A stretch of 64,000 nucleotides of DNA from a virus (IMGVR_UViG_3300048014_000353:74551-138550); one strand, 5' to 3'; positions 16,558 to 64,000 are shown, counted from the first letter of the stretch. Made by a program: numbers and translations. Notes: a model not told the origin generated them from the sequence alone.

Positions 16558-16622
16558 AGGACGCGATCGCCGCCCGCGACGCTGACAACGAGATCCCTCT
16601 CGACCGAAGACCCAAACCATGA
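16341..16622 (+). CDS. -1 frameshift extension (GT-like product) of the chaperone
   Basis: -1 frame from the slippery site reads FFRWVGARFAAQLHAYFGAPASQLSRAQIAAW...RRPKP and ends in an ATGA overlap with the next gene. Confidence 0.75.
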   Translation, partial: FFRWVGARFAAQLHAYFGAPASQLSRAQIAAWHAASELGHEEPRYVVALTAAQYSAFKERASGDAEGDAQKLKDAIAARDADNEIPLDRRPKP

Positions 16623-17263
16623 GCGCATTCACCAAGGTCACCGTCCGCAAGCCGGCCCGGACCCTCGTGATCCCGGTGACGATGTTCGCCGACGATTGGT
16701 ACGGCAGGCCCACAGCGTCGATCGCTGTGGGCCTTCGTCTTTTGTCCGAGCACGATCTGGAGGTCGCGACCGCCTGCGCCCACCGCTTCGTCGCGGACAT
16801 GCAGGATCCGGAGCGGCCGGAGAACCGGCTCTACGAGGAGGTCTTCGGTGCGCGCCTCGCCGCCGAGGCGGTCGCCCGCGCCATCTGCGACCCGAACGAC
16901 GTGTCGATGAGCCACTCGGTGTTCCCCGCGAGCGAGGACACCATCCCGACCGCGCTCACGCCGAAAGGCATCGAGCACGTGTGGGCCGCCCTCGAGCGGA
17001 TGCACATCGAGCTCAACCCCGCGCTCCTGCCCATCCGGGACCCGGGCGTGCGGCTGCTGCGCGCGCACCTGCGCGCCGGCTCGCTGGATCGATTGGGAGA
17101 GGCGGGACTCGGCATCCGCAAGCTCCTCACCGTCGTGCTCGAGAAGTTCGTCGAAGCGGCCCCCACGGTCACCGCGGCGGACGTGGACGACGAGGACGCG
17201 GAAGACAGCGGAGAGCCGCTCTCGACCTACGCCGTGACGCTGCATGCAGGAGTGGCTCAGTGA
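16619..17263 (+). CDS. Tail assembly chaperone-like protein, copy 2
   Basis: Motif order parallels the 15886 ORF (LY......A.A..DP.D; LT...I..............P). Confidence 0.55.
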   Translation: MSAFTKVTVRKPARTLVIPVTMFADDWYGRPTASIAVGLRLLSEHDLEVATACAHRFVADMQDPERPENRLYEEVFGARLAAEAVARAICDPNDVSMSHSVFPASEDTIPTALTPKGIEHVWAALERMHIELNPALLPIRDPGVRLLRAHLRAGSLDRLGEAGLGIRKLLTVVLEKFVEAAPTVTAADVDDEDAEDSGEPLSTYAVTLHAGVAQ

Positions 17264-21259: not shown

Positions 21260-22548
21260 CGCGCGGGCCGGATGTCGGAGGGATCAACGACCGCGTGCGC
21301 CTGATCCTGGGCGGCGATGAGGTACTCATCGCGGAAGACTGGGACGTGTACGAGGGCGTGCTCGAGACCCCCGGCACGTTCTCCCTCACGCTCGGCGCCA
21401 ACACGCCGTTCGTGGACATGTTCATCCGGCCGCAGCTTCAGAGCCCGTACCCCTACGGCCCAAAGTACCCGCCCGGCGTCCCGTTCGTGCTGGAGGTCGA
21501 TGGCCATCCGCAGATGGCGGGCAAGTACGAGGGGTGGCACTTCGCCGAGGGCGACTCCAACCGCATCACGCTGAAGGGGCGTGACCAGCTGGGGTCGCTC
21601 CTCAAGGCGCACTCCGAGTCTCAGCGGAGCTTCCTCAACGGGACCTACAGCGAGATGGTCCAGTGGGCCATCGACCAGGTCGCCAACGGTCAGCAATACA
21701 CGCTCGTCCAATCGAACGCCGCCTCCCGCCAGATCAAGGCGGGCATTCCGATCTCCGTCATCTCCGAGCCGACGCTCGTGGACGAGGTGAACTCGGGCGC
21801 GACGAGCGGAGGGGAATTCGACGGGACCGACGGCGCGACCGTCGGCGCCGTCGTCACGACCGAGAAGCAAAACCGCATCCACGAGAACCTCCTGCACTTC
21901 TGCCGCAGGCACCTGGATCGCGCGGGGCTGTTTCTTTGGTCGGGCCAGGCGCCCGGGCTCTACATCCTCTCGCAGCCCAACGGGCAGCAGAAGCCGATCT
22001 ACCGCATCACACGGAAGCGCGGCCAAGTTCAGAACTCCAACGTCATCCGGGCGTCGTATTGGTACGACACCTCCGACCGGCATTCGCAGTACACGGTCTA
22101 CGGGCGGGGCGGGGGAGGCGTCGCGGGTCGGAGCAAGGTCCATGAGACCTATACCGACGACGAGATGTACAACTTCTCGCAGCTGCCGGGGAACCTCGGC
22201 TTCAACGAGGAGATCCTCTACCGCGACGTGAACGTCGAGAACCGGCAGCAAGCCGCGTTCTACGGCCTTCGCAAGGCAGCGGAGGAACGTCGGCGCGGCT
22301 GGGGCCTGGTCTACACCGTGCGCGGTCACCGCGCGCCGGGCATCAACCCGGGCGACCCGTGGCCGGTGCTCACGATCGACACGACCATCATGGTCGACGA
22401 CGACGAGTTTGCACTCGGTCCGTCGGACCCGGAGGGCGGGATCTACTACGTCGAGAGCGTGCGGCGCATGCGCCGCCCCGAGACGTGCACGCAGATTCGG
22501 CTCATGCGCATCCGCGACCTCATCTTCGGAACCGGCGGGATTGCCTGA
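21256..22548 (+). CDS. Baseplate hub (Mu gp44/P-like)
   Basis: ATGA overlap; PG.FSL.LG, ITLKGRD..G.L, Y.V.GH motifs; synteny. Confidence 0.8.
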   Translation: MTRGPDVGGINDRVRLILGGDEVLIAEDWDVYEGVLETPGTFSLTLGANTPFVDMFIRPQLQSPYPYGPKYPPGVPFVLEVDGHPQMAGKYEGWHFAEGDSNRITLKGRDQLGSLLKAHSESQRSFLNGTYSEMVQWAIDQVANGQQYTLVQSNAASRQIKAGIPISVISEPTLVDEVNSGATSGGEFDGTDGATVGAVVTTEKQNRIHENLLHFCRRHLDRAGLFLWSGQAPGLYILSQPNGQQKPIYRITRKRGQVQNSNVIRASYWYDTSDRHSQYTVYGRGGGGVAGRSKVHETYTDDEMYNFSQLPGNLGFNEEILYRDVNVENRQQAAFYGLRKAAEERRRGWGLVYTVRGHRAPGINPGDPWPVLTIDTTIMVDDDEFALGPSDPEGGIYYVESVRRMRRPETCTQIRLMRIRDLIFGTGGIA

Positions 22549-23396
22549 TGGCGAACGCATTCGAGTGGGATATCGGCGTCGCGATGCTGACGACGTACGA
22601 CCCCGACGGGTTCGTATCGACGCAGGTGGACGCGCCGGGCGAGAACAACGCGCAGGTTCACTCCTACGAGAACCACTTCCCGTACGGCCTGTACGCGCGC
22701 GCGAGCGACGCGCCGCTCGACGGCAACTCCGCCCCCGACCCGACCAAGAGCCATCAGGTGCTCTACGCGCTCGAAGGGGGGCAAGGCCACTCCTGGCCGA
22801 TGGAGAACCCGAGCATCATCTCGCTGCTGCCGACGCTCCAGCCGGGCGAGTCGCTTTTCTACGGCCCGATGGGCCAGTTCGTTCGCACGACCATCGACGG
22901 CCACATTCTCATGTGGACGCCCGGGACCGGCGGCGGCCCCGACCAAAGCCTGATGTTCGGGCCCGACGGATTCTCGGTGAGCGGCAGCTGGGGGAAGATC
23001 CAGCTCGACGAGAACGGCATCACGCTCCAGACGGCCGCGGGCGCGCGCATCGACCTCGGCGCGGCCGGCGGCATCCCCGCGCCCACGTCGGCCATCGGCA
23101 CGCACATCACGATGCAGGCCGGCGCGATCGACGCGCAATGCACGGGCTTCTCCGCCGGGCCCGACACCTCCGCCGGTGGCATTGCGGCGCCCCTGCCCAA
23201 CGGGATCTTCCTGATGGCGTGGATGCTGTCGGTGAACGCGGCGCTCACGGCCATCGCGAGCACGATTCAGGCGGGGGGCGTCACGTCGATGGGCCCGGCT
23301 CAGTTCCCGACCGCCGCTGCGGTCGTGGCCGCGGTCGCGTCGGTCATCCCCCCGACGCCCGTCACGCTCTACACCAACGCCAACGGGATGTTCTGA
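22548..23396 (+). CDS. Baseplate spike (Mu gp45/gpV-like)
   Basis: TGATG overlap; PYG...R.P, LQPGES..Y motifs; beta-repeat C-terminus. Confidence 0.7.
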   Translation: MANAFEWDIGVAMLTTYDPDGFVSTQVDAPGENNAQVHSYENHFPYGLYARASDAPLDGNSAPDPTKSHQVLYALEGGQGHSWPMENPSIISLLPTLQPGESLFYGPMGQFVRTTIDGHILMWTPGTGGGPDQSLMFGPDGFSVSGSWGKIQLDENGITLQTAAGARIDLGAAGGIPAPTSAIGTHITMQAGAIDAQCTGFSAGPDTSAGGIAAPLPNGIFLMAWMLSVNAALTAIASTIQAGGVTSMGPAQFPTAAAVVAAVASVIPPTPVTLYTNANGMF

Positions 23397-27161: not shown

Positions 27162-28637
27162 GTGCCGCACTTCCTCTCGGCGTTTACCCCGATGGGGATG
27201 CTCCGCTTGTCCAGCAAGCTGAGCCCCGTCGAGCTCTGGTACAACGCGATCAACGATGCCTACGGCCCCGGCTACAGCCCGGTGGCAGGGTCGCATCAGG
27301 ACGCGAGCAACTACGCCCGCGCGCGCGCCTTCGCCCGCGCCGACGCCGCCGCGCAGCGCGCGGGCAACAACCGCAACGGCGCGACCGCCCTCGAGCTGAT
27401 CCCGCTCCTCGAAGCGGACTACGAGATCTCGCCCGCCGCGACCGCGACCATCACCCAGCGCCAAGCGGCCATCGCCGCCGCCCAGGCGCTGCCGGGGGGG
27501 GCGAGCTTCTCGAACGTCGCCGCCGTACTCGCGTCAGTGCTGGGTACCGACTTCGTGGCGTACCGGCCGCTGGCGACCACGGAGGCGTCAACGTACCCCG
27601 TCTGGCCGGGCGCTACAGCGACGCTGAAGAGCAACCCGACCCTAGGGATGCAGCCCGTCAAGATGTGCGTCTTGACCGAGCCCGTGGGCCAAACCATCCC
27701 CGTCAACGGAGAGCCCACCCTCGTCGGGTACACCGATCTGCAGCCAGCGCCCAAGGGCATCGACGCGAGTGGCAGCCTGCTCGCCCTCTCCGCCTGGGCG
27801 TCGACGACGTCCTACACCACGGGCCAGATCCTCGGTCCGCAGAGCCCCAACGGCTTCGCCTACGTCTGCACGACCGCAGGCACCAGCGGGACGCTCGAGC
27901 CATCGTTCCCGCGCTTCGCGCGTGCCAACGTAACCGATGGTTCGGTCGTCTGGACGTGCATCGGCACGACCCAGAGCGTCGGCGGGTCGCTGCTCGCCTA
28001 CCCGTCTCCGTGGAGCGCTAGCATCCCGGCCCTGGCGGCGATCGTGGTCCAGCCCGACGCGCAGCCCAACGGCCTCGCCTACCAGTGCACGACCGCGGGC
28101 GTCACCGGCGCGACCGAGCCGACGTGGCCCACGGTCGTGGGACAAACCGTCGTCGATGGGACTGCGGTGTGGGAGTGCGTCTCGGTGCTGGCTCCCACGC
28201 CCGGCGAAACGGACCTTGCCGCCGGCGACGTCGTCGTCGTGCAGGGCGAGAACACGTGCCTATCGGAGGTCGTGACCGTGATCGCTACGGTGGGCACCGG
28301 TTCGCAGCGGTACTTCTATGCGCCGTTCCAGTACGCGCACGACGCGGGCGCCACCGTCACGACGATGGACTGGCCCTATGCGTGGTCCACGCAGCGCTTC
28401 GCCTTCGTCGTCGTCTCGGCCGCCGCCGCCGTCGATCCGGTGCGCCGGAATCTCGTACACACGTGGATGCGCAAGCTCGCCCGCGGTGTCTCGCAGTGGG
28501 CCATCGTCCCCGCGGGCGTCCCCATCGGCGGGGCGGGGGAGTCGCTCATTACGCCGTTCGCCTTCGGCACGTCCCCGCTGGGCACGGCGCCCCTCGGCAA
28601 CACGTTCGAGTACTGGCCGACGCAAGCCGGGCGGTGA
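27162..28637 (+). CDS. Mu gp48/YmfQ-like baseplate protein with two CBM-like modules
   Basis: A.ELIP.LE.DY.I.......I.QRQ.A......GG.S pattern; two internal modules. Confidence 0.65.
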   Translation: MPHFLSAFTPMGMLRLSSKLSPVELWYNAINDAYGPGYSPVAGSHQDASNYARARAFARADAAAQRAGNNRNGATALELIPLLEADYEISPAATATITQRQAAIAAAQALPGGASFSNVAAVLASVLGTDFVAYRPLATTEASTYPVWPGATATLKSNPTLGMQPVKMCVLTEPVGQTIPVNGEPTLVGYTDLQPAPKGIDASGSLLALSAWASTTSYTTGQILGPQSPNGFAYVCTTAGTSGTLEPSFPRFARANVTDGSVVWTCIGTTQSVGGSLLAYPSPWSASIPALAAIVVQPDAQPNGLAYQCTTAGVTGATEPTWPTVVGQTVVDGTAVWECVSVLAPTPGETDLAAGDVVVVQGENTCLSEVVTVIATVGTGSQRYFYAPFQYAHDAGATVTTMDWPYAWSTQRFAFVVVSAAAAVDPVRRNLVHTWMRKLARGVSQWAIVPAGVPIGGAGESLITPFAFGTSPLGTAPLGNTFEYWPTQAGR

Positions 28638-28696
28638 ATCGAGCTTGCGGTGCATCCGACTCGGATGCGAGGCATCGGGACCCGGAGGTTTTTCCC

Positions 28697-28978
28697 ATGG
28701 CTGCTTGGGTTCACGACGTTCTCACGTTCATCGCTCGCCGCACGCAAACGCTCGTCTCGGCCGGCAAGCCGCTCCCGATCGCGCAAGCGATGGCGACGGC
28801 CGAAGCCTCCGCCCCTCCGGGGTTTGCGAGCGGCCCCTCCCAGAACGCGCCCTCGTGGTACGGCGAGCACGCGGTCTGCCCCGCTCCCGACTGCGACTGC
28901 GCCATCTCGCGGGCCATGAAGAAGTGCGACCGCAAGCGCGCCCGGCGCCTCGAGCTTGCGCAAAGGAGCGGAGCATGA
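28697..28978 (+). CDS. Hypothetical protein with Cys cluster
   Basis: GGAGG RBS; HAVCPAPDCDC. Confidence 0.5.
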   Translation: MAAWVHDVLTFIARRTQTLVSAGKPLPIAQAMATAEASAPPGFASGPSQNAPSWYGEHAVCPAPDCDCAISRAMKKCDRKRARRLELAQRSGA

Positions 28979-29196
28979 AGGCCCTCGCAAGCCTCGCCGC
29001 CCTCGCGCTCCTCATGTCGATGGCGTGCGGCACTCCAAAGCCTCCCGTCGAGCCGCCCATCGCCGAAACGGTGGCAAAGCCGGCGCCCGGGGCGCCCGAG
29101 CCTGCGGCGGTACCCCGCGCCGCGCCCGCACCGAGCGCCGAACCCCTAGACGCTCCGGCCGAACCGCCCCCCGTCCGGCACGACGGCCGCGGGTAA
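28975..29196 (+). CDS. Small Pro-rich lipoprotein
   Basis: MKALASLAALALLMSMAC lipoprotein signal; ATGA-coupled. Confidence 0.6.
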   Translation: MKALASLAALALLMSMACGTPKPPVEPPIAETVAKPAPGAPEPAAVPRAAPAPSAEPLDAPAEPPPVRHDGRG

Positions 29197-29234
29197 AAGG
29201 CAAGGGGTGGGGGAGGACGGCGCGCGGTCTCCTT

Positions 29235-29870
29235 TCAGTACGGCGAGCCGCCCGCCGCGCAGCACTCAAGCAGCCCGTTGCCGTTCGACCCGACGGTCAC
29301 CTCTTCGCCGTCCGCGAGGGTGCCAACGATGAAGGTGATGCCTCCGTAGATGATGGGGTTGCACGCCGTCTGGGGGATGCCTCCGTCCTCCTCGTAGAGA
29401 CAGCCCCAGGGGTTGGTCCCGCAGGCCGGAGGGTACGCCCCGTTCGCCGACCCCTTCACGCACCGGGCCGCGGCGGCGATGTTCGCGTCGGGCGTGACCG
29501 CGGCGTCGTCCGGCGCGGAGTCCCCCCCTGCCTCAAGCCCTGCGTCCGGAGCCGACTGGCCGTCGAGTCCCGCGTCTGCGCCATCGAGGGGCGCATCGCG
29601 CGCCGCGTCCATCGCCTCCAGCGGGGCGTCGGTCGCGCCCGAGTCCGATGGCGTCGCGTCGACGGGCGGAGCGTCGGCCTGCGCCTCAAGAGGGGCGCCC
29701 CCCGCGTCCTCCGGCGCCGCGTTCACGGTCGCATCCGGCGCGCCTGCGCCGAGGTGCGTCCCCGCGTCAAGCGCCACCTCCTGCGCGATCACGTCCGTCG
29801 TCTTCGACGAGCAGGCTCCCATCACGACCCCGGCCCCCACGACCCCCACCAGCGCCAGCACGATCCGCAT
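29235..29870 (-). CDS. Myxobacterial-type lipoprotein (DAG-rich linker, Cys-rich C-terminal domain)
   Basis: MRIVLALVGVVGAGVVMGAC lipobox; repeated DAG/DA motifs; five Cys in C-terminal domain; antisense to tail operon. Confidence 0.7.
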   Translation of the reverse strand: MRIVLALVGVVGAGVVMGACSSKTTDVIAQEVALDAGTHLGAGAPDATVNAAPEDAGGAPLEAQADAPPVDATPSDSGATDAPLEAMDAARDAPLDGADAGLDGQSAPDAGLEAGGDSAPDDAAVTPDANIAAAARCVKGSANGAYPPACGTNPWGCLYEEDGGIPQTACNPIIYGGITFIVGTLADGEEVTVGSNGNGLLECCAAGGSPY

Positions 29871-52934: not shown

Positions 52935-52977
52935 AAGGCCACCGGTCCCGCGAGGGATCGGTGGCCTTTCGTCGTTT
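52935..52977 (+). terminator. Hairpin with TTTCGTCGTTT tail (copy 1)
   Basis: 15-bp stem 52935-52949/52954-52968, GCGA tetraloop. Confidence 0.7.
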
Positions 52978-53229
52978 GTGGACGTGAAGGAGACAGTCTT
53001 CTTGCTAGCGCGACTCGTAAGCAAGTCGTACGGTGGCATCGTGATGACTCGCTCAGCCGCCGCCACGTCGATTGAATCGCTGCTGCATTCCGCAGCGGCG
53101 ATGGCGTGCGTCCGCCTTTCGAGCGATCGCCAGACGCCCAAGGCGTATCCCACCTTCGGAAGCTGGTCGATCAATCCGGAGGTGGGGCAAACGTAGGGCG
53201 GCATTCGGAGTAGAGCGATAGCTCGAAAC
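52978..53229 (+). ncRNA. Candidate structured ncRNA preceding the tRNA array
   Basis: No convincing ORF; stems 53077-53086/53092-53101 and 53149-53160/53175-53186 with G-U pairs; bounded by two related hairpins. Confidence 0.45.
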
Positions 53230-53268
53230 AAGGCCGCCCGGAGAGATCCGAGGCGGCTTTCGTCGTTT
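53230..53268 (+). terminator. Hairpin with TTTCGTCGTTT tail (copy 2)
   Basis: Stem 53230-53241/53248-53260. Confidence 0.6.
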
Positions 53269-53270
53269 CT

Positions 53271-53354
53271 GGGGTGCGATGGCGGGTGGCTCCCGCAGGC
53301 CGGCTGTAACCCGGTCGCCAAGGCTAGTGGTTCGAATCCACCGACACCCCACCA
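53271..53354 (+). tRNA. tRNA-Tyr(GTA)
   Basis: GCCGG-CTGTAAC-CCGGT anticodon arm, long variable arm, encoded CCA. Confidence 0.85.
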
Positions 53355-53397
53355 GCAAAGAGGACCAGGTGAAACAGGGACCAAAGCACGAAAGCGA

Positions 53398-53469
53398 GGG
53401 ACGTTAGCACCAAGGTGGTGCGGCCGGCTTTTACCCGGCACGAGGCGTGTTCGATTCACGTGCGTCCCA
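53398..53469 (+). tRNA. tRNA-Lys(TTT)
   Basis: GCCGG-CTTTTAC-CCGGC; acceptor GGGACGT/GCGTCCC. Confidence 0.85.
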
Positions 53470-53479
53470 CGACTCCAAC

Positions 53480-53551
53480 GGGAGGTTGGCATCCAGGTGA
53501 CGCAGCGCTCTCTTACAGCGACAGAGCCGGGTTCGAGTCCCGGGCCTCCCA
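53480..53551 (+). tRNA. tRNA-Lys(CTT)
   Basis: CGCT-CTCTTAC-AGCG; canonical T arm. Confidence 0.8.
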
Positions 53552-53564
53552 CGAAGTGAAGTGC

Positions 53565-53635
53565 ACCGGTCTCGTCCAAAGGCAGGACAGCAGATTCTGG
53601 ATCTGAGAATTGGGGTTCGAGTCCCTAGACCGGTA
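53565..53635 (+). tRNA. tRNA-Gln(CTG)
   Basis: CAGA-TTCTGGA-TCTG; D stem GTCC/GGAC. Confidence 0.85.
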
Positions 53636-53782
53636 CTGCGGGCAACGACTCCACGTTGACAAGTTGACCCCCGTTCGTTGACAACCTGAACGACCCCCGA
53701 CGGCGCGCGCTCCCCCGAGTTCGCGCGGCAGTCCCGGTCGACGTTCATTCGGGCCGGTAGCCATCGTGGCGCGGCCCTTCAT

Positions 53783-53856
53783 TGCGACGAAGCTCAATGG
53801 CGAGCAGCAGACTGTTAGCCTGTCGGAACAGGGTTCGATTCCCTGCGTCGCAGCCA
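53783..53856 (+). tRNA. tRNA-Asn(GTT)
   Basis: Loop CTGTTAG; G73 + CCA. Confidence 0.85.
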
Positions 53857-53857
53857 T

Positions 53858-53929
53858 GCCGGTTGGGCCCGATGGTAGGGCACCCCTTTCGTAAAGGGGT
53901 CGCAACGTGTTCGATTCACGTAACCGGCT
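53858..53929 (+). tRNA. tRNA-Thr(CGT)
   Basis: CCCCT-TTCGTAA-AGGGG. Confidence 0.85.
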
Positions 53930-53985
53930 CTGGGAGTAGGCCGCTCGCGTGGGTGACTCCTCGCGTGCGCGCTGACGCCCGCCAT

Positions 53986-54058
53986 GCTCCCATCGACTTC
54001 TGGTGAGGTCGCGCGCCTCTCACGCGCGCCAGGCACGGTTCGAATCAGGCGGGGAGTG
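53986..54058 (+). tRNA. tRNA-Glu(CTC), T stem degenerate
   Basis: CGCGC-CTCTCAC-GCGCG; T stem poorly paired. Confidence 0.55.
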
Positions 54059-54064
54059 CAACGC

Positions 54065-54137
54065 GCCCGCATAGCGCATCTGGTGAGGCCACCCGCCCTT
54101 CAAGCGGGCCAGACGAGTTCGATCCTCGTTGCGGGTA
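54065..54137 (+). tRNA. tRNA-Glu(TTC), C33
   Basis: CCCGC-CCTTCAA-GCGGG. Confidence 0.8.
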
Positions 54138-54144
54138 CTATTTT

Positions 54145-54219
54145 GCCTGCTGAGCTAGTGCGGTCATTCAGCGCTCGTTTGAAGAACGAGAGAACCCCGT
54201 CCGACTCGGGGAGCAGGCA
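54145..54219 (+). tRNA. tRNA-Phe(GAA), C55
   Basis: CTCGT-TTGAAGA-ACGAG; T loop TCCGACT. Confidence 0.8.
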
Positions 54220-54223
54220 CTAT

Positions 54224-54295
54224 CGGAGTGGTGGGCGATGGACGCCCGCTTGGTTCGGGACCAAGACCCCGCAGGTTCGATTCCTGTCGCTCCGA
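54224..54295 (+). tRNA. tRNA-Pro(CGG)
   Basis: CTTGG-TTCGGGA-CCAAG; C1-G72, A73. Confidence 0.85.
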
Positions 54296-54300
54296 CTCAT

Positions 54301-54373
54301 GGTGCTCGAAGCCATCTGGTGATGGTGATCGGCTGTGAACCGATCCAGGCGGGTTCGATCCCCGTCGGGCACC
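54301..54373 (+). tRNA. tRNA-His(GTG)
   Basis: ATCGG-CTGTGAA-CCGAT; G-1:C73. Confidence 0.85.
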
Positions 54374-54396
54374 CTACTCCTTTCGAGGAGACGAAT

Positions 54397-54467
54397 GCTT
54401 CGTGACGCGACAGGGTCGCGGCTCGGTTGTCTCCCGAGTGAGACCGGTTCGAGTCCGGTACGAAGCG
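54397..54467 (+). tRNA. tRNA-Asp(GTC)
   Basis: CTCGG-TTGTCTC-CCGAG; G73. Confidence 0.8.
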
Positions 54468-54498
54468 CTGGCTGGCGAGCGGGTCTCGCAAGCTTCTT

Positions 54499-54566
54499 AG
54501 GTCTGAGCGTGGGACGCGACGTGGTCTCCAAAACCACGAAAGAAGGTTCGAGTCCTTCCAGATCTG
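54499..54566 (+). tRNA. tRNA-Trp(CCA), short D arm
   Basis: GTGGT-CTCCAAA-ACCAC; G73. Confidence 0.75.
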
Positions 54567-54631
54567 CCGGGCTCTCGCGGCGCTCCGTGGGACTCGTCTC
54601 TAGGTTGACACGCCTATGGGCCCATCACTTC

Positions 54632-54702
54632 GGGCTGTTCGTCCAGCGGGAGGACACCGCGTCGGCAATGCGGGAACGCCGGTTCGAATCCGGCACGGTC
54701 CA
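54632..54702 (+). tRNA. tRNA-Ala(GGC), C33
   Basis: CCGCG-TCGGCAA-TGCGG; G3-U70. Confidence 0.85.
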
Positions 54703-54711
54703 CGATTCTAC

Positions 54712-54780
54712 GGGCTTGTCTGAGAGGTCAGGTCTCTCGTTCGCATCGAGCGATACGGGGTGCGACTCCCCGCAGGTCCA
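54712..54780 (+). tRNA. tRNA-Ala(CGC), G55
   Basis: CTCG-TTCGCAT-CGAG; G3-U70; T loop TGCGACT. Confidence 0.75.
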
Positions 54781-54784
54781 CCTT

Positions 54785-54855
54785 GGGGGTGTAGCTCAGC
54801 GGGAGAGCACTCGGTTTGCACCCGAGGGACGAGAGTTCGATTCTCTCCACTTCCA
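54785..54855 (+). tRNA. tRNA-Ala(TGC)
   Basis: CTCGG-TTTGCAC-CCGAG; G3-U70. Confidence 0.9.
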
Positions 54856-54933
54856 CACGGTCATCGAGGAGACCGTTAGCCTACCACGCAAGTGGTCACC
54901 CGTAGCACGGGTTTGGTAAGGGGCCCTCGCCAT

Positions 54934-55004
54934 GCCGCGTCTCCTAGTGGGCGACATCCCTCGGTACGGGAAGTCGGACGGTGCGATTCCGTCACGCGGC
55001 TCCA
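54934..55004 (+). tRNA. tRNA-Thr(GGT), C33, G55
   Basis: TCCC-TCGGTAC-GGGA; encoded CCA. Confidence 0.75.
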
Positions 55005-55005
55005 C

Positions 55006-55073
55006 GCCGGCGGCTGTGGAGCAGAGAGGGATTTGTAGCTCATCTCGAACCGGTCCGACTCCGGTGGCCGGCT
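55006..55073 (+). tRNA. Degenerate tRNA-Thr(TGT)
   Basis: Acceptor and T arm (ACCGG-TCCGACT-CCGGT) present; anticodon stem mismatched, D arm reduced. Confidence 0.4.
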
Positions 55074-55082
55074 CTGATTCTT

Positions 55083-55151
55083 GCGGGTGAGCCCAAGGTG
55101 GGACGTTCGCCTTCCAAGCGAAACGACCGAGTTCGAATCTCGGCATCCGCT
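55083..55151 (+). tRNA. tRNA-Gly(TCC)
   Basis: TTCGC-CTTCCAA-GCGAA; U73. Confidence 0.85.
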
Positions 55152-55358
55152 CTACTCGATGGCGTGCCGCGCCGAGTGCGCCAGTTTCAGTCGTTCGAGT
55201 TGATCGTCGCCGACGGGGTTCCCGCTGGATAGGCCGTTCGACATGAGCGGCAGCGGCTCTTTGCAGACACCGCAAGCCGTTGGTGCGCGGCGGAGGATGC
55301 CGATCGTCTTGATCTCTTCACCGCGAGCGCAGCCATCGCACACGAGCGTCCATCTCAT
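55152..55358 (-). CDS. Small zinc-ribbon protein antisense within the tRNA array
   Basis: MRWTLVCDGC...TACGVC; two CxxC motifs. Confidence 0.55.
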   Translation of the reverse strand: MRWTLVCDGCARGEEIKTIGILRRAPTACGVCKEPLPLMSNGLSSGNPVGDDQLERLKLAHSARHAIE

Positions 55359-55375
55359 CGTCGAAACGGTACCAT

Positions 55376-55449
55376 GCGGGTGCAGCTCGAAGGTCGAGCA
55401 GATCGTCGCCAACGATCAGGCGCGGGTTCAATTCCAGCCATCCGCTCCA
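55376..55449 (+). tRNA. tRNA-Gly(GCC), C33
   Basis: GATCG-TCGCCAA-CGATC; U73 + CCA. Confidence 0.8.
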
Positions 55450-55450
55450 C

Positions 55451-55522
55451 GTCGTGGACTGCGAGCGCAGATCGCCGGCTGCAACCCGGCGCGCGAGGGC
55501 GCGACTCCCTCCCACGACTCCA
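55451..55522 (+). tRNA. tRNA-Cys(GCA), C54/G55
   Basis: GCCGG-CTGCAAC-CCGGC; U73 + CCA; T loop CGCGACT. Confidence 0.75.
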
Positions 55523-55523
55523 T

Positions 55524-55557
55524 ATCGAGATCCCGATGCCCTCATCGAGATCCCGAT
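55524..55557. repeat. Tandem 14-bp direct repeat ATCGAGATCCCGAT, each an ATCG-N6-CGAT palindrome
   Basis: Exact copies at 55524-55537 and 55544-55557. Confidence 0.8.
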
Positions 55558-55561
55558 AGAC

Positions 55562-55636
55562 GCGCTCGTCCTGGCGGATCCAGGCTCTCGCCTTCTAAGC
55601 GAGTTCGCGACGGTCCGACTCCGTCCGGGCGCTCCA
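55562..55636 (+). tRNA. tRNA-Arg(TCT), C55
   Basis: CTCGC-CTTCTAA-GCGAG; encoded CCA. Confidence 0.8.
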
Positions 55637-55801
55637 TCCGAGGACCTTCGCTGGCAGCGTGCGTGAGCCCAAAGGAGCGTGACACGGCCGCTCACACGTA
55701 CGCCGGGCTGTCCAAAGAGTCGGGACACGCGGTGCCTCCCCACGGGCACCGCCCCCGTGAGTAGGCGCGGCCGGGCGAAGGGCCGAACGCCGAAGTCAAT
55801 T

Positions 55802-55872
55802 CTCCTCGTCCGGGCGGACCCCGGGCGCTCCCTCCGAAGGAGCAATCCACCGTTCGACTCGGTGCGAGGAGA
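55802..55872 (+). tRNA. tRNA-Arg(CCG)
   Basis: GCTCC-CTCCGAA-GGAGC. Confidence 0.8.
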
Positions 55873-55891
55873 CCGCCGCGCGAGCGGCCAT

Positions 55892-55962
55892 GCCCCCGTC
55901 CTGGCGGATCCAGGCAGCGGTCTACGAAACCGCTCGTCGGAGTTCGACTCTCCGCGGGGGCT
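55892..55962 (+). tRNA. tRNA-Arg(ACG)
   Basis: GCGGT-CTACGAA-ACCGC. Confidence 0.85.
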
Positions 55963-55963
55963 C

Positions 55964-56036
55964 TGTAGGGAGGGTGGTCTTAGTCCCAACCGAGGCTCAT
56001 AACCTCGGCTTCGCCGGTGCAACACGGCCCCTGCAA
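55964..56036 (+). tRNA. tRNA-Met(CAT), T arm atypical
   Basis: CGAGG-CTCATAA-CCTCG; T loop TGCAACA. Confidence 0.65.
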
Positions 56037-56037
56037 C

Positions 56038-56105
56038 CGCAGCACGCCTCGGAGGCGCGCGAGCCCCATAAGCTCGCCGACCCGGTTCGACTCCGGGTGC
56101 TGCGA
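56038..56105 (+). tRNA. tRNA(CAT), Ile2 or Met, C33, short D arm
   Basis: CGAGC-CCCATAA-GCTCG. Confidence 0.7.
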
Positions 56106-56111
56106 CGACGT

Positions 56112-56187
56112 GCCGGCCTCGCGCTCTAGTGAGCACCGCCGCCTTACAAGCGGATGAAGGCGAGTGCGATCCTCGCGGCCGGTACCA
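56112..56187 (+). tRNA. tRNA-Val(TAC), G55
   Basis: CCGC-CTTACAA-GCGG; A73 + CCA. Confidence 0.8.
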
Positions 56188-56194
56188 AATCTTT

Positions 56195-56267
56195 GCGGAG
56201 CTCGTCCTCTGGCGAGGGCACCACGTCGACAACGTGGTTCAGGCGAGTTCGATCCTCGCGCTCCGCA
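56195..56267 (+). tRNA. tRNA-Val(GAC), C33
   Basis: CCACG-TCGACAA-CGTGG. Confidence 0.85.
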
Positions 56268-56279
56268 CCGCTTTTTCAC

Positions 56280-56351
56280 CCGGCCGGACTGGCGGGTCGC
56301 CTTGCGCTCTCTGATACGGAGCGCGGCCGCGTTCGAGTCGCGGCGGCCGGA
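56280..56351 (+). tRNA. tRNA-Ile(GAT)
   Basis: GCTCT-CTGATAC-GGAGC. Confidence 0.8.
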
Positions 56352-56423
56352 CCCATTCACGCCAAGAAACGACTCCACGGAGACGATCCCCATGCTGCTC
56401 AGGCGAAGGAAACGGTGACGACC

Positions 56424-56966
56424 ATGCTGGCCAACCCCTGTCTCGTGCTCACGCCGCGAATGATCCCCCACGAAGCCGTCTCGCTCGAGCGCGCGATCTG
56501 CCTGGCGTACCTGCGCAAGGTGGACGTGCTCGAAGTCTACGAGGCCGTCGTGCATTCGCCGTCGCTCGAGATGCAGGTGCCAGCCGTCGTCCGCCTGACG
56601 AGCAAGGCCATGCCGCATGAGATGCGGGATGTGAAGTTCTCCCGCCCGCGCGTCTACCAGCGCGACGGGCACCGGTGCCAGTACTGCGGCGTGAAGAAGC
56701 GCGCGTCCGAGCTCAACTACGACCACGTGATCCCTCGTTCCAAGGGCGGCCCGACGAACTGGACGAACATCGTGACGAGCTGCCTCGTCTGCAACGGGCG
56801 TAAGGGCGGCCGGACACCGAAAGAGGCGGGGATGCGTCTCCTTCGAAAGCCACGCGCGCCGGAGAGTCTCCCGCTCGTCGGCCTGGTCGCGCTCCCGAGC
56901 GACGTTCCCGAGCTCTGGCTTCCGTACCTCGAAGGTCATTCATCCCGCGTGGCGATGACCGCGTGA
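56424..56966 (+). CDS. McrA-like HNH endonuclease inside the tRNA array
   Basis: AAGGA RBS; RD...CQYCG...DHVIPRSKGG...W.NIV..C..CN..KG.RTP.EAGM.L. Confidence 0.9.
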   Translation: MLANPCLVLTPRMIPHEAVSLERAICLAYLRKVDVLEVYEAVVHSPSLEMQVPAVVRLTSKAMPHEMRDVKFSRPRVYQRDGHRCQYCGVKKRASELNYDHVIPRSKGGPTNWTNIVTSCLVCNGRKGGRTPKEAGMRLLRKPRAPESLPLVGLVALPSDVPELWLPYLEGHSSRVAMTA

Positions 56967-57081
56967 AGCTTGCCTGCCGCTACCCGCCGGAAGAGCGCGC
57001 GTGGACCATGCCGCGCGGCCACCGCAGGTCAATCAGCCATTCCCGGCGCATGGCGCGGAACACCGGGGCTCTCATCTCTTT

Positions 57082-57163
57082 GGAGGGTGAAGTGGCATGG
57101 GGCCACGCTGGCTTCGAAACCCAGGGACCTTCACGGGTAGGCGTTCGATTCGTCCACCCTCCG
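57082..57163 (+). tRNA. tRNA-Ser(CGA)
   Basis: Loop TTCGAAA, long variable arm, G73. Confidence 0.8.
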
Positions 57164-57261
57164 CTACCTTCGTCGTGCCGCAGCATGGCCGGGATGAGAC
57201 GCCCCGGCGGGACAAACCGCGTTCGAACGAACGATGTGAGGTCCGCACGACGCGGAGACTT

Positions 57262-57344
57262 GGAAGACGAACCCGCCAGGGGCGGGGACCGATTGCTAAT
57301 CGGCACGTGGGGCAACCCATCCTGTTCGAGTCAGGCGTCTTCCG
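57262..57344 (+). tRNA. tRNA-Ser(GCT)
   Basis: CCGA-TTGCTAA-TCGG; variable arm GTGGG-GCAA-CCCAT. Confidence 0.85.
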
Positions 57345-57345
57345 C

Positions 57346-57414
57346 TCCGGTACCCCGTGGACGGGAACGTGGCCTTTGAAGCCGCGGACGAGAGTTCGAA
57401 CCTCTCTACCGGTA
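57346..57414 (+). tRNA. tRNA-Gln(TTG)
   Basis: GTGGC-CTTTGAA-GCCGC. Confidence 0.75.
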
Positions 57415-57415
57415 C

Positions 57416-57499
57416 CCGATCGTGGTGGAACAGCAGACACGGCGCGCTGAGAACGCGTGCCCCCCTAGGGGCGTGAGGGTGCGATTCCCTCCGATCGGA
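57416..57499 (+). tRNA. tRNA-Leu(GAG), G55
   Basis: GCGCG-CTGAGAA-CGCGT; long variable arm. Confidence 0.8.
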
Positions 57500-57509
57500 C
57501 GACTCTCTT

Positions 57510-57594
57510 GCTCGGGTGTCGGAAAAGGTAGACGAGCGACGTTCAGACCGTCGTGCCCCTCGTGGGCGTGCTGGTTCGAGTCCAGCCCTGAGCA
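57510..57594 (+). tRNA. tRNA-Leu(CAG)
   Basis: CGACG-TTCAGAC-CGTCG; long variable arm. Confidence 0.9.
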
Positions 57595-57609
57595 CTTCTC
57601 ACTTCTCTG

Positions 57610-57694
57610 GCCGCGGTGGTTGGAACGGCAGACACGCGCAGTTCAAACCTGCGTGCCTTCGGGCGTGCGGGTTCAAGTCCCGCCCGCGGCACCA
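57610..57694 (+). tRNA. tRNA-Leu(CAA)
   Basis: CGCAG-TTCAAAC-CTGCG; encoded CCA. Confidence 0.9.
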
Positions 57695-57970: not shown

Positions 57971-58180
57971 GGGGGCCGGGTCGCTCGTCGGCAAAGCGTT
58001 CGCAGTGGCCTCGGCCTCCGCCTCCTCGCGCGCCTCGAGCTCGAAGTGCGCGATCGCCGGGCCGAGGAGACCGCGCGCCGCCTCCGCCGTGTCCGTGACG
58101 CCGCCGGTGACCATCTGCGCGTAGAGGTGTCGGAGCTGGCCGAGATGGAAGGCCGTCGAGTGGCGATGGCCGTCGATCAT
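57965..58180 (-). CDS. Hypothetical protein downstream of hicB
   Basis: Overlap-coupled to hicB. Confidence 0.45.
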   Translation of the reverse strand: MIDGHRHSTAFHLGQLRHLYAQMVTGGVTDTAEAARGLLGPAIAHFELEAREEAEAEATANALPTSDPAPK

Positions 58181-58767
58181 TTCCGGGTATCTAGTGAGGT
58201 CAAGGCAAAGGAGTCGGTCTTGGTATCCCGTCCGCCCTCCGACTTACGATTGCCGTCACGGATGACTTTGCCTGCTCGCGTGACATTCATGTCGAGCATG
58301 TCCAAGTCCGTCATTCGCGTCGGCGCCAACGCCTTTGCGGGCCGCGGCAACGGGCGAGTTCGTCCGGACTTTTTCGGCTTTGCGTCGAGAATCATGCCCG
58401 ACTGGAGGTCCGTCAAAAAGGCACGTACCGTCGTGCGGCTGAGGCCCTCGGCGATCCACGTCACGAAGAGTTGATTCAGCGAGACCCCTTCCGCCGACGA
58501 GACCGCCGACGCCCGCGCGTGCAGCGTCTTGGGCATGCGGAGCGCAAACTTGCCGGAGTAGTCCACCGCATCGATGTCGGACTCGGGCACGGGACGCCCG
58601 TGGGCCTTGAGCGATTCGACCATGAGCTTGCCGGCGATCTCGATCTCTTTGACCGCCTCCTCCATCGTGTCGCCGTGCGCCGCGAGCGTGTCGAACGCAG
58701 GCGCACGCGCGATGAAGACTTCGTCCAGGGCACTCCAGCTGACGAATACGCGATAGGGGAACATCAC
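58177..58767 (-). CDS. hicB: HicB-family antitoxin with RHH domain and C-terminal extension
   Basis: Y...V.WS..D..FIA..P.......HGDT.EEA..E; YSGKF.LRMP..LH......A..EGVSLNQ. Confidence 0.88.
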   Translation of the reverse strand: MMFPYRVFVSWSALDEVFIARAPAFDTLAAHGDTMEEAVKEIEIAGKLMVESLKAHGRPVPESDIDAVDYSGKFALRMPKTLHARASAVSSAEGVSLNQLFVTWIAEGLSRTTVRAFLTDLQSGMILDAKPKKSGRTRPLPRPAKALAPTRMTDLDMLDMNVTRAGKVIRDGNRKSEGGRDTKTDSFALTSLDTRK

Positions 58768-59726: not shown

Positions 59727-60047
59727 ATGACGTCTGGCAAGCCGAAGCCGAAGTGCGACCGTTGCGGCGGCACGCTCGTGAAAGGTGAGGTTTACAACGG
59801 CGGCGGTGGCCGTCGCCTCTGCTGCGCCTGTGGGACGAACGAGAACAGCCCGCTCGTGAGGTATGTCAAAAGCCGTCTCGCGTACCGCGCGTTCGCTCTC
59901 TGGTGGGATGAGGTGGAGCCCTGTCCGACGGGGGCGGCTTCAGCCAAGGAAGCGTGGACGATGCTCCCGCCCTCCCATCAGCGCGCGTGGAGGAGCGTCG
60001 TGCGCTTGGTATGGAAGGAATGTCGCGCTTCCCACCCGGAGGCCTGA
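59727..60047 (+). CDS. Zinc-finger protein
   Basis: CDRCG...CCACG. Confidence 0.5.
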   Translation: MTSGKPKPKCDRCGGTLVKGEVYNGGGGRRLCCACGTNENSPLVRYVKSRLAYRAFALWWDEVEPCPTGAASAKEAWTMLPPSHQRAWRSVVRLVWKECRASHPEA

Positions 60048-60055
60048 GGACCGCC

Positions 60056-60763
60056 ATGCTGTACATCCTCCACACCTCCGACACGCACGGGTGGGACATC
60101 ACGCAGATCCCGCTCGACGCCCAAAACAGCGAGCACGGCGTACGCATCGACGTCGTCGTGCACTCGGGCGACTTCCAGCCGACCAAGGGCCGCCGCGTGG
60201 GCGAGCGCATCCGGCCCGTCGCCGAGGTCCGCTACCAGGATCGGTGGATGCGAAAGAACGCGCCGAAGATCGCGGCGTGGCTCGACGGACGCCCGTTCGT
60301 CTTCGTGCCGGGCAACCACGACTTCTACAACCCGACCGCCGACCTCGCGCTCGCCGGCGCGAACGTCGTGTGGCTTCGGAACGGAAGTGCATCGGTCGCG
60401 GGGATCCGTTTCTCCGGCTACCGATTCATCCCGTACATCGAAGGGGAATGGTGCGGCGAGCTCCCGGAGAGCGACATCGCCAAGCACGCCAAGGAGATCG
60501 AGGACTGCGACGTCCTCGTCACCCACGCGCCTCCGCACGGCGTGCTCGACCGGGACAGCGGTCGGCACTTCGGGAGCTCGGCGCTCGCGAACGAGTACCT
60601 CTACAACCGCGAGGGACGACGTCTGCCGAAGGTGTGGCTCTGCGGCCACGTCCATCCGCACGGGGGCGAGCAGGCGCAACTCACTTTCGGGGGGATCCTG
60701 GTCGTGAACTCGGCCAAGACATGGCAGGTGATCGGGATCAAGCCTTCGGAAGTGGCACCTTGA
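60056..60763 (+). CDS. Metallophosphoesterase
   Basis: SDTHG, HSGDF, PGNHD, THAPP, CGHVH. Confidence 0.88.
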   Translation: MLYILHTSDTHGWDITQIPLDAQNSEHGVRIDVVVHSGDFQPTKGRRVGERIRPVAEVRYQDRWMRKNAPKIAAWLDGRPFVFVPGNHDFYNPTADLALAGANVVWLRNGSASVAGIRFSGYRFIPYIEGEWCGELPESDIAKHAKEIEDCDVLVTHAPPHGVLDRDSGRHFGSSALANEYLYNREGRRLPKVWLCGHVHPHGGEQAQLTFGGILVVNSAKTWQVIGIKPSEVAP

Positions 60764-62963: not shown

Positions 62964-64000
62964 GAGCCCGTTCGAAATTATCGATCCTTTGATGGAAATA
63001 GGGGGCCTGCGCGGGTGGTTGCTCGTGCAGGATGCTCGCGGTGGACGCAGTTCGGGCGAAGTACGCGCGGCTGCGCGGCGTGATGGACGAGCGCGTGACG
63101 CGTCTGTGGGCTGCGGCGGAGGCTGAGGCGATCGGATACGGCGGAATCGCGGCGGTGGTCGAGGCGACGGGGATCAGCAAGTCGAGGGTGCGCGCTGGTC
63201 TGCGGGAGCTGTTGGAATATGCGACGGATCCACCGACGACTGCACCGCGTGCACAACGAGTTCGGCGCCCTGGGGCTGGGCGACCTCTGCTTGAGAAGCT
63301 CGACCCGACGTTGGTGCCGGATCTGGAATCGCTCGTCGAGCCGGTGACGCGAGGCGATCCGGAGTCGCCACTTCGTTGGACGTGCAAGAGCAAGGACAAG
63401 CTGGCCGCCGAGCTGCAGGCGATGGGGCACAAGGTGAGCGCGACCAAAGTAGGCCTGCTGCTCCACGACTTGGAATACAGCCTCCAGGTTGTGCGCAAGA
63501 CGCGCGAGGGCGGCCAGTCACCGGACCGCAACGCCCAGTTCGAGCACATCAACCGCACGGCGAAAGCGTTCATGAAACGCGGCCAGCCCGTGGTCTCGGT
63601 CGATACGAAAAAGAAGGAATTAGTGGGCGATTTCAAGAACGCAGGGCACGAGTGGCACCCGAAGGGGTCGCCGGAACCTGTCCGCGTTCACGACTTCATC
63701 GATCGCGATCTTGGCAAGGTGATCCCCTATGGCATCTACGACACCACTCGCAACGAGGCGTGGGTCAGCGTAGGGGTCGATCACGACACGGCGGAGTTCG
63801 CGGTCGCTACTCTCGAGCGCTGGTGGCGTGAGATGGGCAAGAAGGCCTACCCGGATGCCACCGAGCTGCTGGTCACGGCGGATGGCGGCGGCAGCAACGC
63901 CCCGCGCTCACGACTGTGGCGCGTCGAATTGCAGCGTTTCGCGGACGCAACAGGCCTCCGCGTAAGCGTCTGTCACTTTCCGCCGGGGACCAGTAAGTGG
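62964..64000 (+). mobile_element. ISAzo13-family insertion sequence, left part
   Basis: Left end GAGCCCGTTCGAAATT after TAG; transposase downstream. Confidence 0.8.
63032..64000 (+). CDS. ISAzo13-family DDE transposase (3'-truncated by window)
   Basis: DER..RLWAA.EA...GYGG; RGDPESPL.WT.KS; DRNAQF..IN; SVDTKKKELVG.FKN.G; VGVDHDT.EFAV; ADGGGSN; HFPPGTSKW. Confidence 0.92.
   Translation, partial: MLAVDAVRAKYARLRGVMDERVTRLWAAAEAEAIGYGGIAAVVEATGISKSRVRAGLRELLEYATDPPTTAPRAQRVRRPGAGRPLLEKLDPTLVPDLESLVEPVTRGDPESPLRWTCKSKDKLAAELQAMGHKVSATKVGLLLHDLEYSLQVVRKTREGGQSPDRNAQFEHINRTAKAFMKRGQPVVSVDTKKKELVGDFKNAGHEWHPKGSPEPVRVHDFIDRDLGKVIPYGIYDTTRNEAWVSVGVDHDTAEFAVATLERWWREMGKKAYPDATELLVTADGGGSNAPRSRLWRVELQRFADATGLRVSVCHFPPGTSKW

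Follow-up and report, generated by a model that had tools for sequence, protein, structure and literature searches.

The stretch of DNA analysed here (the window) comprises 64,000 nucleotides of IMGVR_UViG_3300048014_000353 (74551-138550) and is the final part of a linear IMG/VR virus record of 138,550 bp with a CheckV completeness of 82%. An array of tRNA genes, all encoded on the + strand, is located at 53271-57694 of the window and surrounds a gene encoding an HNH endonuclease. The array is most likely a spare supply of tRNAs for the phage rather than a correction of codon bias, and it belongs to a family of phage arrays with a conserved gene order, the closest of which is found at the viral locus L063. 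The features of the region are listed below with the evidence for each; nucleotides such as C33 or G55 are named by tRNA position.

53118-53272 (+): structured leader of ~150 nt abutting tRNA-Tyr (fold, L063 conservation)
53271-53354 (+): tRNA-Tyr(GUA), long variable arm, CCA encoded (ARAGORN default)
53398-53470 (+): tRNA-Lys(UUU) (ARAGORN default, Rfam)
53480-53552 (+): tRNA-Lys(CUU), L063 orthologue 93% identical (ARAGORN default, Rfam)
53565-53636 (+): tRNA-Gln(CUG) (ARAGORN default, Rfam)
53783-53856 (+): tRNA-Asn(GUU), CCA encoded (ARAGORN default, Rfam)
53858-53930 (+): tRNA-Thr(CGU) (ARAGORN default, Rfam)
53986-54059 (+): tRNA-Glu(CUC) (ARAGORN default)
54065-54138 (+): tRNA-Glu(UUC), C33 (ARAGORN default, Rfam)
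54145-54220 (+): tRNA-Phe(GAA), T-loop UCCGACU (C55) (ARAGORN default)
54224-54296 (+): tRNA-Pro(CGG), the sole Pro isoacceptor (ARAGORN default, Rfam)
54301-54374 (+): tRNA-His(GUG), encoded G-1 opposite C73 (ARAGORN default, Rfam)
54397-54468 (+): tRNA-Asp(GUC) (ARAGORN default)
54499-54568 (+): tRNA-Trp(CCA) (ARAGORN default)
54632-54703 (+): tRNA-Ala(GGC), G3:U70, C33 (ARAGORN default, Rfam)
54712-54782 (+): tRNA-Ala(CGC), G3:U70, T-loop UGCGACU (G55) (ARAGORN -ps85; weak tRNA-like Rfam matches at 54712-54783)
54785-54856 (+): tRNA-Ala(UGC), G3:U70, the most canonical gene at 66.7 bits (ARAGORN default, Rfam)
54857-54933 (+): conserved structured spacer, non-tRNA (L063 conservation)
54934-55004 (+): tRNA-Thr(GGU), C33, G55, CCA encoded (ARAGORN -ps85)
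55003-55072 (+): tRNA-Thr(UGU)-like, probably decayed (ARAGORN -ps75 only)
55083-55152 (+): tRNA-Gly(UCC) (ARAGORN default, Rfam)
55376-55449 (+): tRNA-Gly(GCC), C33, CCA encoded (ARAGORN default, Rfam)
55451-55522 (+): tRNA-Cys(GCA), 4-nt D-loop, T-loop CGCGACU, U73, CCA encoded (ARAGORN -ps75, fold, orthologues)
55562-55636 (+): tRNA-Arg(UCU), C55, CCA encoded (ARAGORN default)
55802-55874 (+): tRNA-Arg(CCG) (ARAGORN default)
55892-55963 (+): tRNA-Arg(ACG) (ARAGORN default)
55964-56036 (+): first CAU tRNA, Met elongator-like, without the C1xA72 mismatch and without the triple G-C at the anticodon stem (ARAGORN default)
56038-56105 (+): second CAU tRNA, C33, mini D-loop (ARAGORN default, called at 56032-56106; fold)
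56112-56187 (+): tRNA-Val(UAC), G55 with AG D-loop, CCA encoded (ARAGORN -ps85)
56195-56269 (+): tRNA-Val(GAC), C33, as in the orthologue of L055 (ARAGORN default)
56284-56353 (+): tRNA-Ile(GAU) (ARAGORN default)
56424-56966 (+): HNH endonuclease gene, 180 amino acids (Pfam, phrog, orthologues)
57082-57164 (+): tRNA-Ser(CGA), long variable arm (ARAGORN default, Rfam)
57262-57345 (+): tRNA-Ser(GCU), long variable arm (ARAGORN -ps85)
57346-57416 (+): tRNA-Gln(UUG) (ARAGORN default)
57416-57500 (+): tRNA-Leu(GAG), G55 with AG D-loop (ARAGORN default, Rfam)
57510-57595 (+): tRNA-Leu(CAG) (ARAGORN default, Rfam)
57610-57694 (+): tRNA-Leu(CAA), CCA encoded, the last gene of the array (ARAGORN default, Rfam)

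ARAGORN at default settings identifies 29 of these tRNA genes and none outside the array in the whole 138,550-bp record. The -ps85 setting adds four within the array, Ala(CGC), Thr(GGU), Val(UAC) and Ser(GCU), and -ps75 adds the Thr(UGU)-like and Cys-like genes, for a total of 34 credible genes and one that is doubtful. The original prediction, which was made from the sequence alone, described approximately 35 co-oriented tRNA genes in 4.4 kb, and this is borne out, as is its grouping of the genes by amino acid (Lys x2, Glu x2, Ala x3, Gly x2, Arg x3, CAT x2, Val x2, Ser x2 and Leu x3). The count of eight genes encoding CCA after the discriminator is exact (Tyr, Asn, Thr-GGU, Gly-GCC, Cys, Arg-UCU, Val-UAC and Leu-CAA), the enrichment in C34 amounts to thirteen genes, and the coverage of all 20 amino acids holds once Cys(GCA) is accepted on the compensatory changes seen among its orthologues. 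The density is 6.6 to 7.9 genes per kb (29 default calls to 35 in 4,424 bp), above the L-array definition of at least 20 genes at two or more per kb, and the shared orientation is compatible with an operon. Scores against the Rfam tRNA model are low (30-67 bits), with about 17 matches reaching the threshold and several genes without a match; the array genes are therefore strongly diverged tRNAs.

Three of the calls depend on structure and orthologues. The Cys gene is real: it folds de novo into a cloverleaf with the GCA anticodon in a 7-nt loop (CUGCAAC), U73 and an encoded CCA. Aligned with eight Cys genes from syntenic or related phages, it shows compensatory changes in 19 of the 21 pairs, and U73-CCA terminates all nine genes; the nearest orthologue (L063:5201-5272) has compensatory differences in the D and anticodon stems. 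In the Thr(UGU) gene the anticodon stem pairs poorly and the fold z-score is -0.9; the syntenic counterpart in L063 is intact, and the window copy is probably decaying. The second CAU gene fits better at 56038-56105, since the minimum free energy (MFE) fold of this register is a clean cloverleaf (z -3.25), and the 7-nt overlap of the two CAU genes in the ARAGORN calls is therefore an artefact. The bacterial initiator marks are absent from both CAU genes, so neither is assigned as an initiator. A lysidine-modified Ile2 role for a CAU gene is not supported, as AUA is nearly unused in the phage (4 codons).

U33 is near-universal in tRNAs. Six of the 35 window genes carry C33 instead, as do 53 of 535 anticodon loops across the related arrays, mostly those of Val, Ile, Glu and Ala; no literature on C33 in phage tRNAs was found. 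Many array tRNAs break other "invariant" positions as well, with G55 accompanying A18, A54 accompanying U58, and a nucleotide other than U at position 8. Within a sample of 539 unique tRNAs from the window array and related arrays (loci L055-L142), T-loops with G55 are paired with a D-loop AG rather than GG (13/18 vs 5/499, p 2.7e-18, for G55-A18), and T-loops with A54 have U58 (11/17 vs 0/514, p 5.8e-19). U8 is replaced in 161 of the 539, and 17 tRNAs have C55 T-loops (UCCGA) with the D-loop GG still present. The paralogue pairs Leu-GAG/Leu-CAG and Val-UAC/Val-GAC of the window exhibit the switch from GG to AG together with that from U55 to G55. Identity marks are retained, including G3:U70 in all three Ala genes, G-1:C73 in His, U73 in Cys and the long variable arms of Leu, Ser and Tyr. 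The cloverleaf pairing is also retained, even though orthologous tRNAs average 61-67% identity (maximum 93%). Co-variation of this kind at the elbow would not be expected in decaying pseudogenes. Structural selection on the array tRNAs is evident from these alignments, and the indications that the array genes are functional are indirect but consistent.

The HNH gene was not part of the original prediction. Its open reading frame is intact and matches Pfam HNH_5 (8.9e-15), Pfam HNH (1.2e-13) and phrog_16726 (3.5e-31), and the motif C-x2-C ... DHV ... N ... C-x2-C-N is conserved in three orthologues. The gene is located between Ile and Ser in the window, L063, L068 and L082, and the HNH proteins of the syntenic arrays are 44-59% identical. 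The closest homologues in IMG/VR are almost all encoded, co-oriented, inside tRNA arrays of 2-38 genes on large phage contigs; the more distant homologues lie outside tRNA arrays. Of the 80 HNH loci on metagenome contigs, tRNAs are present at 48, and of these 504 tRNAs 501 share the orientation of the HNH gene.

Gene order was compared through the longest common subsequence (LCS) with the window, given relative to the number of genes in the contig; shuffling of the IMG/VR contigs yields a maximum of 11-13. The IMG/VR contigs score 27/31 (L082), 24/31 (L063), 19/24 (L068) and 17/27 (L088), and the metagenome contigs score 28/33 (L186), 22/26 (L183), 18/23 (L194), 17/22 (L189) and 10/10 (L184). 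This comparison of array synteny, which had been proposed as a check of the original prediction, shows nearly the gene order of the window in at least nine other viral or metagenome contigs, with LCS values for the four IMG/VR contigs above the shuffled maximum. All of the syntenic arrays were located through the HNH protein as marker, a search in which arrays lacking HNH could not surface. An exact 28-mer of the Cys gene had no match in the metagenome contigs, and a degenerate T-arm pattern matched only unrelated arrays in the viral contigs.

The phages with syntenic arrays do not have the capsid family of the window and share only scattered, weakly similar proteins with it (22/132), while phages of ~98 kb with a related structural module encode zero to two tRNAs. 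Homology to L063 is confined to 53146-57685, which is the leader and the array. The GC content of phages with related arrays ranges from 0.58 to 0.67, and two Myxococcota metagenome-assembled genomes (MAGs) contain fragments of similar arrays on small contigs. As in L-arrays, an isotype order shared by unrelated replicons suggests horizontal spread. With tRNA identities of 61-67% and HNH identities of 44-59%, the array architecture therefore appears to be old and to have been joined to different backbones. No recent array transfer was seen among the related contigs found and no relative closer than L063 was found (HNH at most 59% identical, mean tRNA identity 67%), so recent homing is not traceable. 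In 301 Myxococcota genomes, with two candidates scored per genome, tRNA matches were partial (75-93% over 40-90 nt). Recent capture from the predicted host appears unlikely, as no near-identical tRNAs were found in the Myxococcota genomes covered by this search.

The leader at 53118-53272 has an MFE of -77.1 kcal/mol (z -5.7) and is 78% identical to L063:3012-3167, which lies directly 5' of the tRNA-Tyr of L063. It consists of a 12-bp hairpin (CCCACCUUCGGA / UCCGGAGGUGGG) followed by a terminator-like hairpin with the U-rich tract TTTCGTCGTTTCT, and it could be a small RNA or a leader of the array. A second, similar hairpin with TTTCGTCGTTTGT is located at ~52935-52985. The spacer at 54857-54933 is 75% identical to L063:4745-4830, with 4 of 18 predicted pairs compensatory in this two-sequence alignment, and no Rfam family matched it. 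The hexamer TTGACA occurs on the + strand in array spacers at 53656, 53678 and 54605, which are three of the six occurrences in the 64-kb window; these are possible -35 boxes, with no convincing -10 element beside them. The 9-mer ACGACTCCA has five copies in the 138.5-kb record, all within the array (+ strand; 53469, 53645, 55514, 56369 and 57694), where 0.6 would be expected in the window. Copies are found at the 3' end of tRNA-Cys, in an imperfect palindrome just 5' of the HNH start and after the last tRNA, and the 9-mer may serve as a recognition site for the HNH endonuclease or be left over from recombination.

The 35 anticodons can read 95% of the 30,493 phage codons, 79% through Watson-Crick pairing, and leave CCC/CCU/CCA, UCC/UCU/UCA, CUA, UUA and AUA unread. 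The array of L063 contains ~41 genes, the extras being Pro(GGG), Pro(UGG), Ser(GGA), Ser(UGA), Leu(UAA) and Arg(CCU). These six cover most of the decoding gaps of the window, and the ancestral tRNA set was therefore probably complete. The fractions of codons within each amino acid were compared between the phage and contigs from a Polyangiaceae MAG, the one in which the nearest genomic capsid relative is found. The correlation is r 0.993 and includes an unusual preference for CUC over CUG; with another Myxococcota genome it is r 0.97. As the codon usage of phage and MAG is near-identical, there is no visible codon gap for the array to fill. The array has tRNAs for codons at both ends of the usage scale, the rarest including AGA (2% of Arg), UUG (5% of Leu) and GCA (6% of Ala), and none for the common codons CCC and UCC. 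The lack of a codon gap, together with service of commonest and rarest codons alike, favours a role in supply or replacement.

The window contains a myovirus-like structural module, with a fusion of NUDIX and a Mu-like gpI protease, Baseplate J, an 854-aa protein and terminase, and genes encoding a guanylate kinase and the GH25 lysin lie directly 5' of the tRNA array. The late arm ends with the array, which comes after the lysis genes and is co-oriented with the late and lysis genes. The left arm of the record encodes a tyrosine integrase, RNA ligase, sigma factor, type I-E Cas7 and Cse1, helicase, RlaP nucleotidyltransferase, DnaB, SNF2 and ParB. The source is a large uncultured soil/peat phage of at least 138.5 kb, myovirus-like and possibly temperate. 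Identity as a plasmid or an integrative and conjugative element is ruled out, as the record holds a full set of phage structural and replication genes. The original prediction considered the setting unusual, with such an array beside Mu-like genes in a probable myxobacterial element; the element is instead a large phage, a setting which the original prediction itself calls typical and where arrays of this size are expected. A myxobacterial host stays plausible. Capsid relatives, which were reached through an alignment of capsid homologues, are named or linked to genomes only in MAGs of Polyangiaceae, Myxococcales and Sorangium and in Pendulispora, and the best cultured match of the array HNH is in Myxococcus phage Mx1. 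The host, as far as these relatives indicate, is probably a Polyangiaceae-type myxobacterium. A capsid protein that is 58% identical (P0009) is carried on a 201-kb contig. Cultured phages have no close capsid (best 22% identity), INPHARED phages gave no megablast match to a 20 kb query, and single-protein queries for related loci with the GH25 lysin or the capsid found nothing.

The genome also encodes candidates for RNA repair. The Rnl5-type RNA ligase (record 6537-7499) exhibits PF09414 (3.1e-27) and a PHA02142 OB domain and matches the structure of Naegleria Rnl5 at 1e-8, and the RlaP nucleotidyltransferase is found at record 28200-29501. Of the two components of T4-type tRNA repair, Pnkp and an RNA ligase, the ligase is present. 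End-healing candidates in the record are limited to RlaP and a calcineurin-like metallophosphoesterase (59954-60763 of the window). In an unrelated phage, G010, an RlaP homologue adjoins a 557-aa protein (phrog_1735) at 20428-23144, about 4 kb from the syntenic array; searches gave no identity for the 557-aa protein. Neither a peptidyl-tRNA hydrolase nor a TROVE/Ro60 protein turned up when the phage record was searched for them. The RNA ligase and RlaP fit a theme of RNA damage.

Other genes of the record include the type I-E Cascade genes at 13895-17011 (Cas7/CT1975, 3e-104; Cse1, 5e-80). On the 3' side of the array, a HicB-like antitoxin gene is located at 58177-58767 (-), the calcineurin-like metallophosphoesterase gene follows, and an ISAzo13-family DDE transposase gene at 63032-64000 is cut by the contig end. 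ARAGORN also reports tRNA-like genes with a CUA (amber) anticodon in a related array fragment (L060:1832-1900, -) and, at the relaxed threshold only, in the left arm of the phage (record 33130-33224).

We favour, with a probability of about 0.6, the reading that this is a genuine phage tRNA array, made up of 34 credible tRNA genes and a single decayed copy around a resident HNH gene, carried by a large myovirus-like phage and belonging to an old family with conserved order that is found in large high-GC phages otherwise unrelated to one another, and that it acts as a spare tRNA pool sustaining late translation when host tRNAs are depleted. The tRNA genes would be transcribed from the + strand as one or a few precursors and cut by host RNases. 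Because no phage CCA enzyme was found, the host CCA-adding enzyme would have to finish the 27 genes without CCA, and charging would be carried out by host synthetases through the retained identity marks. The resulting pool, being nearly self-sufficient, could keep late translation running as host tRNAs fall, whether through tRNA-cleaving defence nucleases or through host shut-off. Such nucleases may act poorly on the phage copies, whose anticodon loops (C33 in six genes) and elbows are off consensus. The HNH endonuclease would most likely aid the persistence and spread of the array by homing, in the manner of SegB in the tRNA region of T4. Such a replacement pool would fit the near-complete decoding, the host-like codon usage, the RNA-repair genes and the off-consensus anticodon loops. 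Phage tRNAs are known to counter tRNA-targeting defences (PMC10264068, PMC11555353, PMC12409363), the upkeep of translation after host shut-off is discussed as an alternative (PMC11025619), and the idea of a replacement pool is not new here, as it has been published for other phages (PMC10264068, PMC11555353).

Several observations weigh against the spare-pool reading. Six isoacceptors have been lost relative to L063 and one gene has decayed, so that selection has not been uniformly strong. A terminator-like hairpin stands immediately before the first tRNA gene, and scanning for sigma-70 promoters gave none on the + strand of the array. The record, which is ~82% complete, also yielded no polynucleotide kinase, RtcB or CCA enzyme. 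The integrase and ParB genes point to a temperate life style, and large tRNA arrays are rarer in temperate phages. The close match in codon usage compares the phage with a host that is predicted, through a MAG that was perhaps binned partly on composition.

A bolder proposal, which we regard as rather unlikely, is that the array family is a deliberately off-consensus yet functional tRNA set. The changes U33 to C, G18-psi55 (pseudouridine) to A18-G55 and T54-A58 to A54-U58, with frequent loss of U8, would co-vary so as to keep the L-shape while stripping the marks that host anticodon nucleases and modification enzymes (TruB, TrmA, ThiI) recognize. The family would then provide a spare decoding system that resists nucleases and needs no modification, and it would travel among unrelated phages as a cassette of 4-5 kb along with the HNH gene and a structured leader.

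The classical explanation of phage tRNAs is codon compensation, in which tRNAs are supplied for codons used more by the phage than by its host and late protein synthesis is thereby faster. The co-oriented position of the array behind the late and lysis genes would suit this, as would the C34/G34-rich isoacceptors, which match phage codons rich in G or C at the third position. The phage and Polyangiaceae codon fractions are nevertheless almost the same, the array serves even the rarest codons (AGA, UUG, GCA) and common ones such as CCC and UCC go unserved, which makes codon compensation a distinctly improbable account. Insurance across hosts with different tRNA pools, which would allow efficient translation in each of them, could draw on the near-complete tRNA set and on the spread in GC content among phages with related arrays; the phage matches the codon usage of one host type very closely, however, and the chance that this explains the array is likewise slight.

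The array could also be a selfish cassette that the HNH endonuclease drives into co-infecting phages, with little benefit to them and with many genes drifting towards pseudogenes. The recurrence of the ordered array and HNH gene in backbones that share almost no other genes, with capsid relatives encoding few or no tRNAs, is what such a cassette would produce, as are the restriction of L063 homology to leader and array, the six lost genes, the decayed gene and the many poor Rfam tRNA scores. Against it, the cloverleaf and identity elements are kept at ~35-40% divergence with many compensatory and tertiary co-variations, and an HNH gene at one slot in all syntenic arrays, at 44-59% identity, has the look of long co-inheritance rather than recent invasion. 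We regard the purely selfish account as unlikely. A role in lysogeny, in which the tRNAs are needed to establish or maintain it or act as attachment sites, has a precedent in the tRNA-dependent lysogeny of some mycobacteriophages (PMC10865867) and would be in keeping with the tyrosine integrase and ParB genes. The integrase is ~124 kb from the array, though, and thirty-five genes far exceed what lysogeny would need, so this role is very improbable.

Because the phage and its putative host have near-identical codon usage, the array offers a good natural example that speaks against codon compensation and in favour of supply or replacement. The recurrence of an ordered array and HNH gene in unrelated backbones provides a defined family for studying array movement. 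The co-varying changes at "invariant" positions could reveal which tRNA features are read by defence nucleases and modification enzymes, and the off-consensus tRNAs could serve as natural scaffolds for orthogonal tRNAs.

Phage tRNAs that counter host defences, such as those of T5 against retron/PtuAB and PARIS and the anticodon-loop variants of mycobacteriophages, offer one comparison, as the phage copies of the window could likewise replace cut host tRNAs. Those tRNAs deviate in the anticodon loop, where the window tRNAs are also off consensus; within the literature searched, the deviations of the window (C33, G55/A18, A54/U58, non-U8) differ from those reported in PMC11555353, PMC12409363 and PMC10264068. 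In T4, SegB promotes inheritance of the tRNA region, and the T5 tRNA region contains HNH homing endonucleases (PMC2330249). The window shares with both a free-standing nuclease gene inside a tRNA cluster. Homing with co-conversion has been proposed for the preferential inheritance of the T4 and T5 clusters, and homing by the window HNH is suggested by this analogy. Unlike the window endonuclease, SegB is a GIY-YIG enzyme, and the HNH gene of the window family keeps a single, constant slot across the syntenic arrays.

Myxococcus phage Mx1 (169.6 kb, 22 tRNA genes; PMC10720576) is the only myxobacterial phage described earlier with many tRNAs. It is a large contractile-tailed myxophage, comparable to the window phage with its probable myxobacterial host, and its HNH protein, encoded between two tRNA-Leu genes, is the best cultured match to the array HNH (44% identity). 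Mx1 has no capsid similarity to the window phage, its tRNAs are more scattered, and its GC content is 55.5% against 69% in its host, so that codon compensation is plausible there.

The closest parallel is found in the L-arrays, tRNA array units defined by Tran et al. 2016, in the passage quoted by PMC5966550, as having at least 20 tRNA genes at two or more per kb. Horizontally spreading arrays with conserved isotype order and HNH genes are described in mycobacteriophages, plasmids and bacteria (PMC5966550, PMC8421152, PMC6409571). The window array shares with L-arrays more than 20 co-oriented tRNA genes at over two per kb, an isotype order common to unrelated replicons, and an HNH endonuclease, which is their commonest in-array protein gene. 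The tRNAs of L-arrays are not close copies of the host's own genes, and the partial matches in Myxococcota genomes suggest that this may apply to the window array too. Unlike the L-arrays of Actinobacteria and Cyanobacteria, the window family is carried by phages of soil and peat with links to Myxococcota. Large tRNA arrays are already well known in phages, and the window array is a further case of that kind; what it mainly contributes is a clean example for the myxobacteria, a host group that has been sampled poorly.

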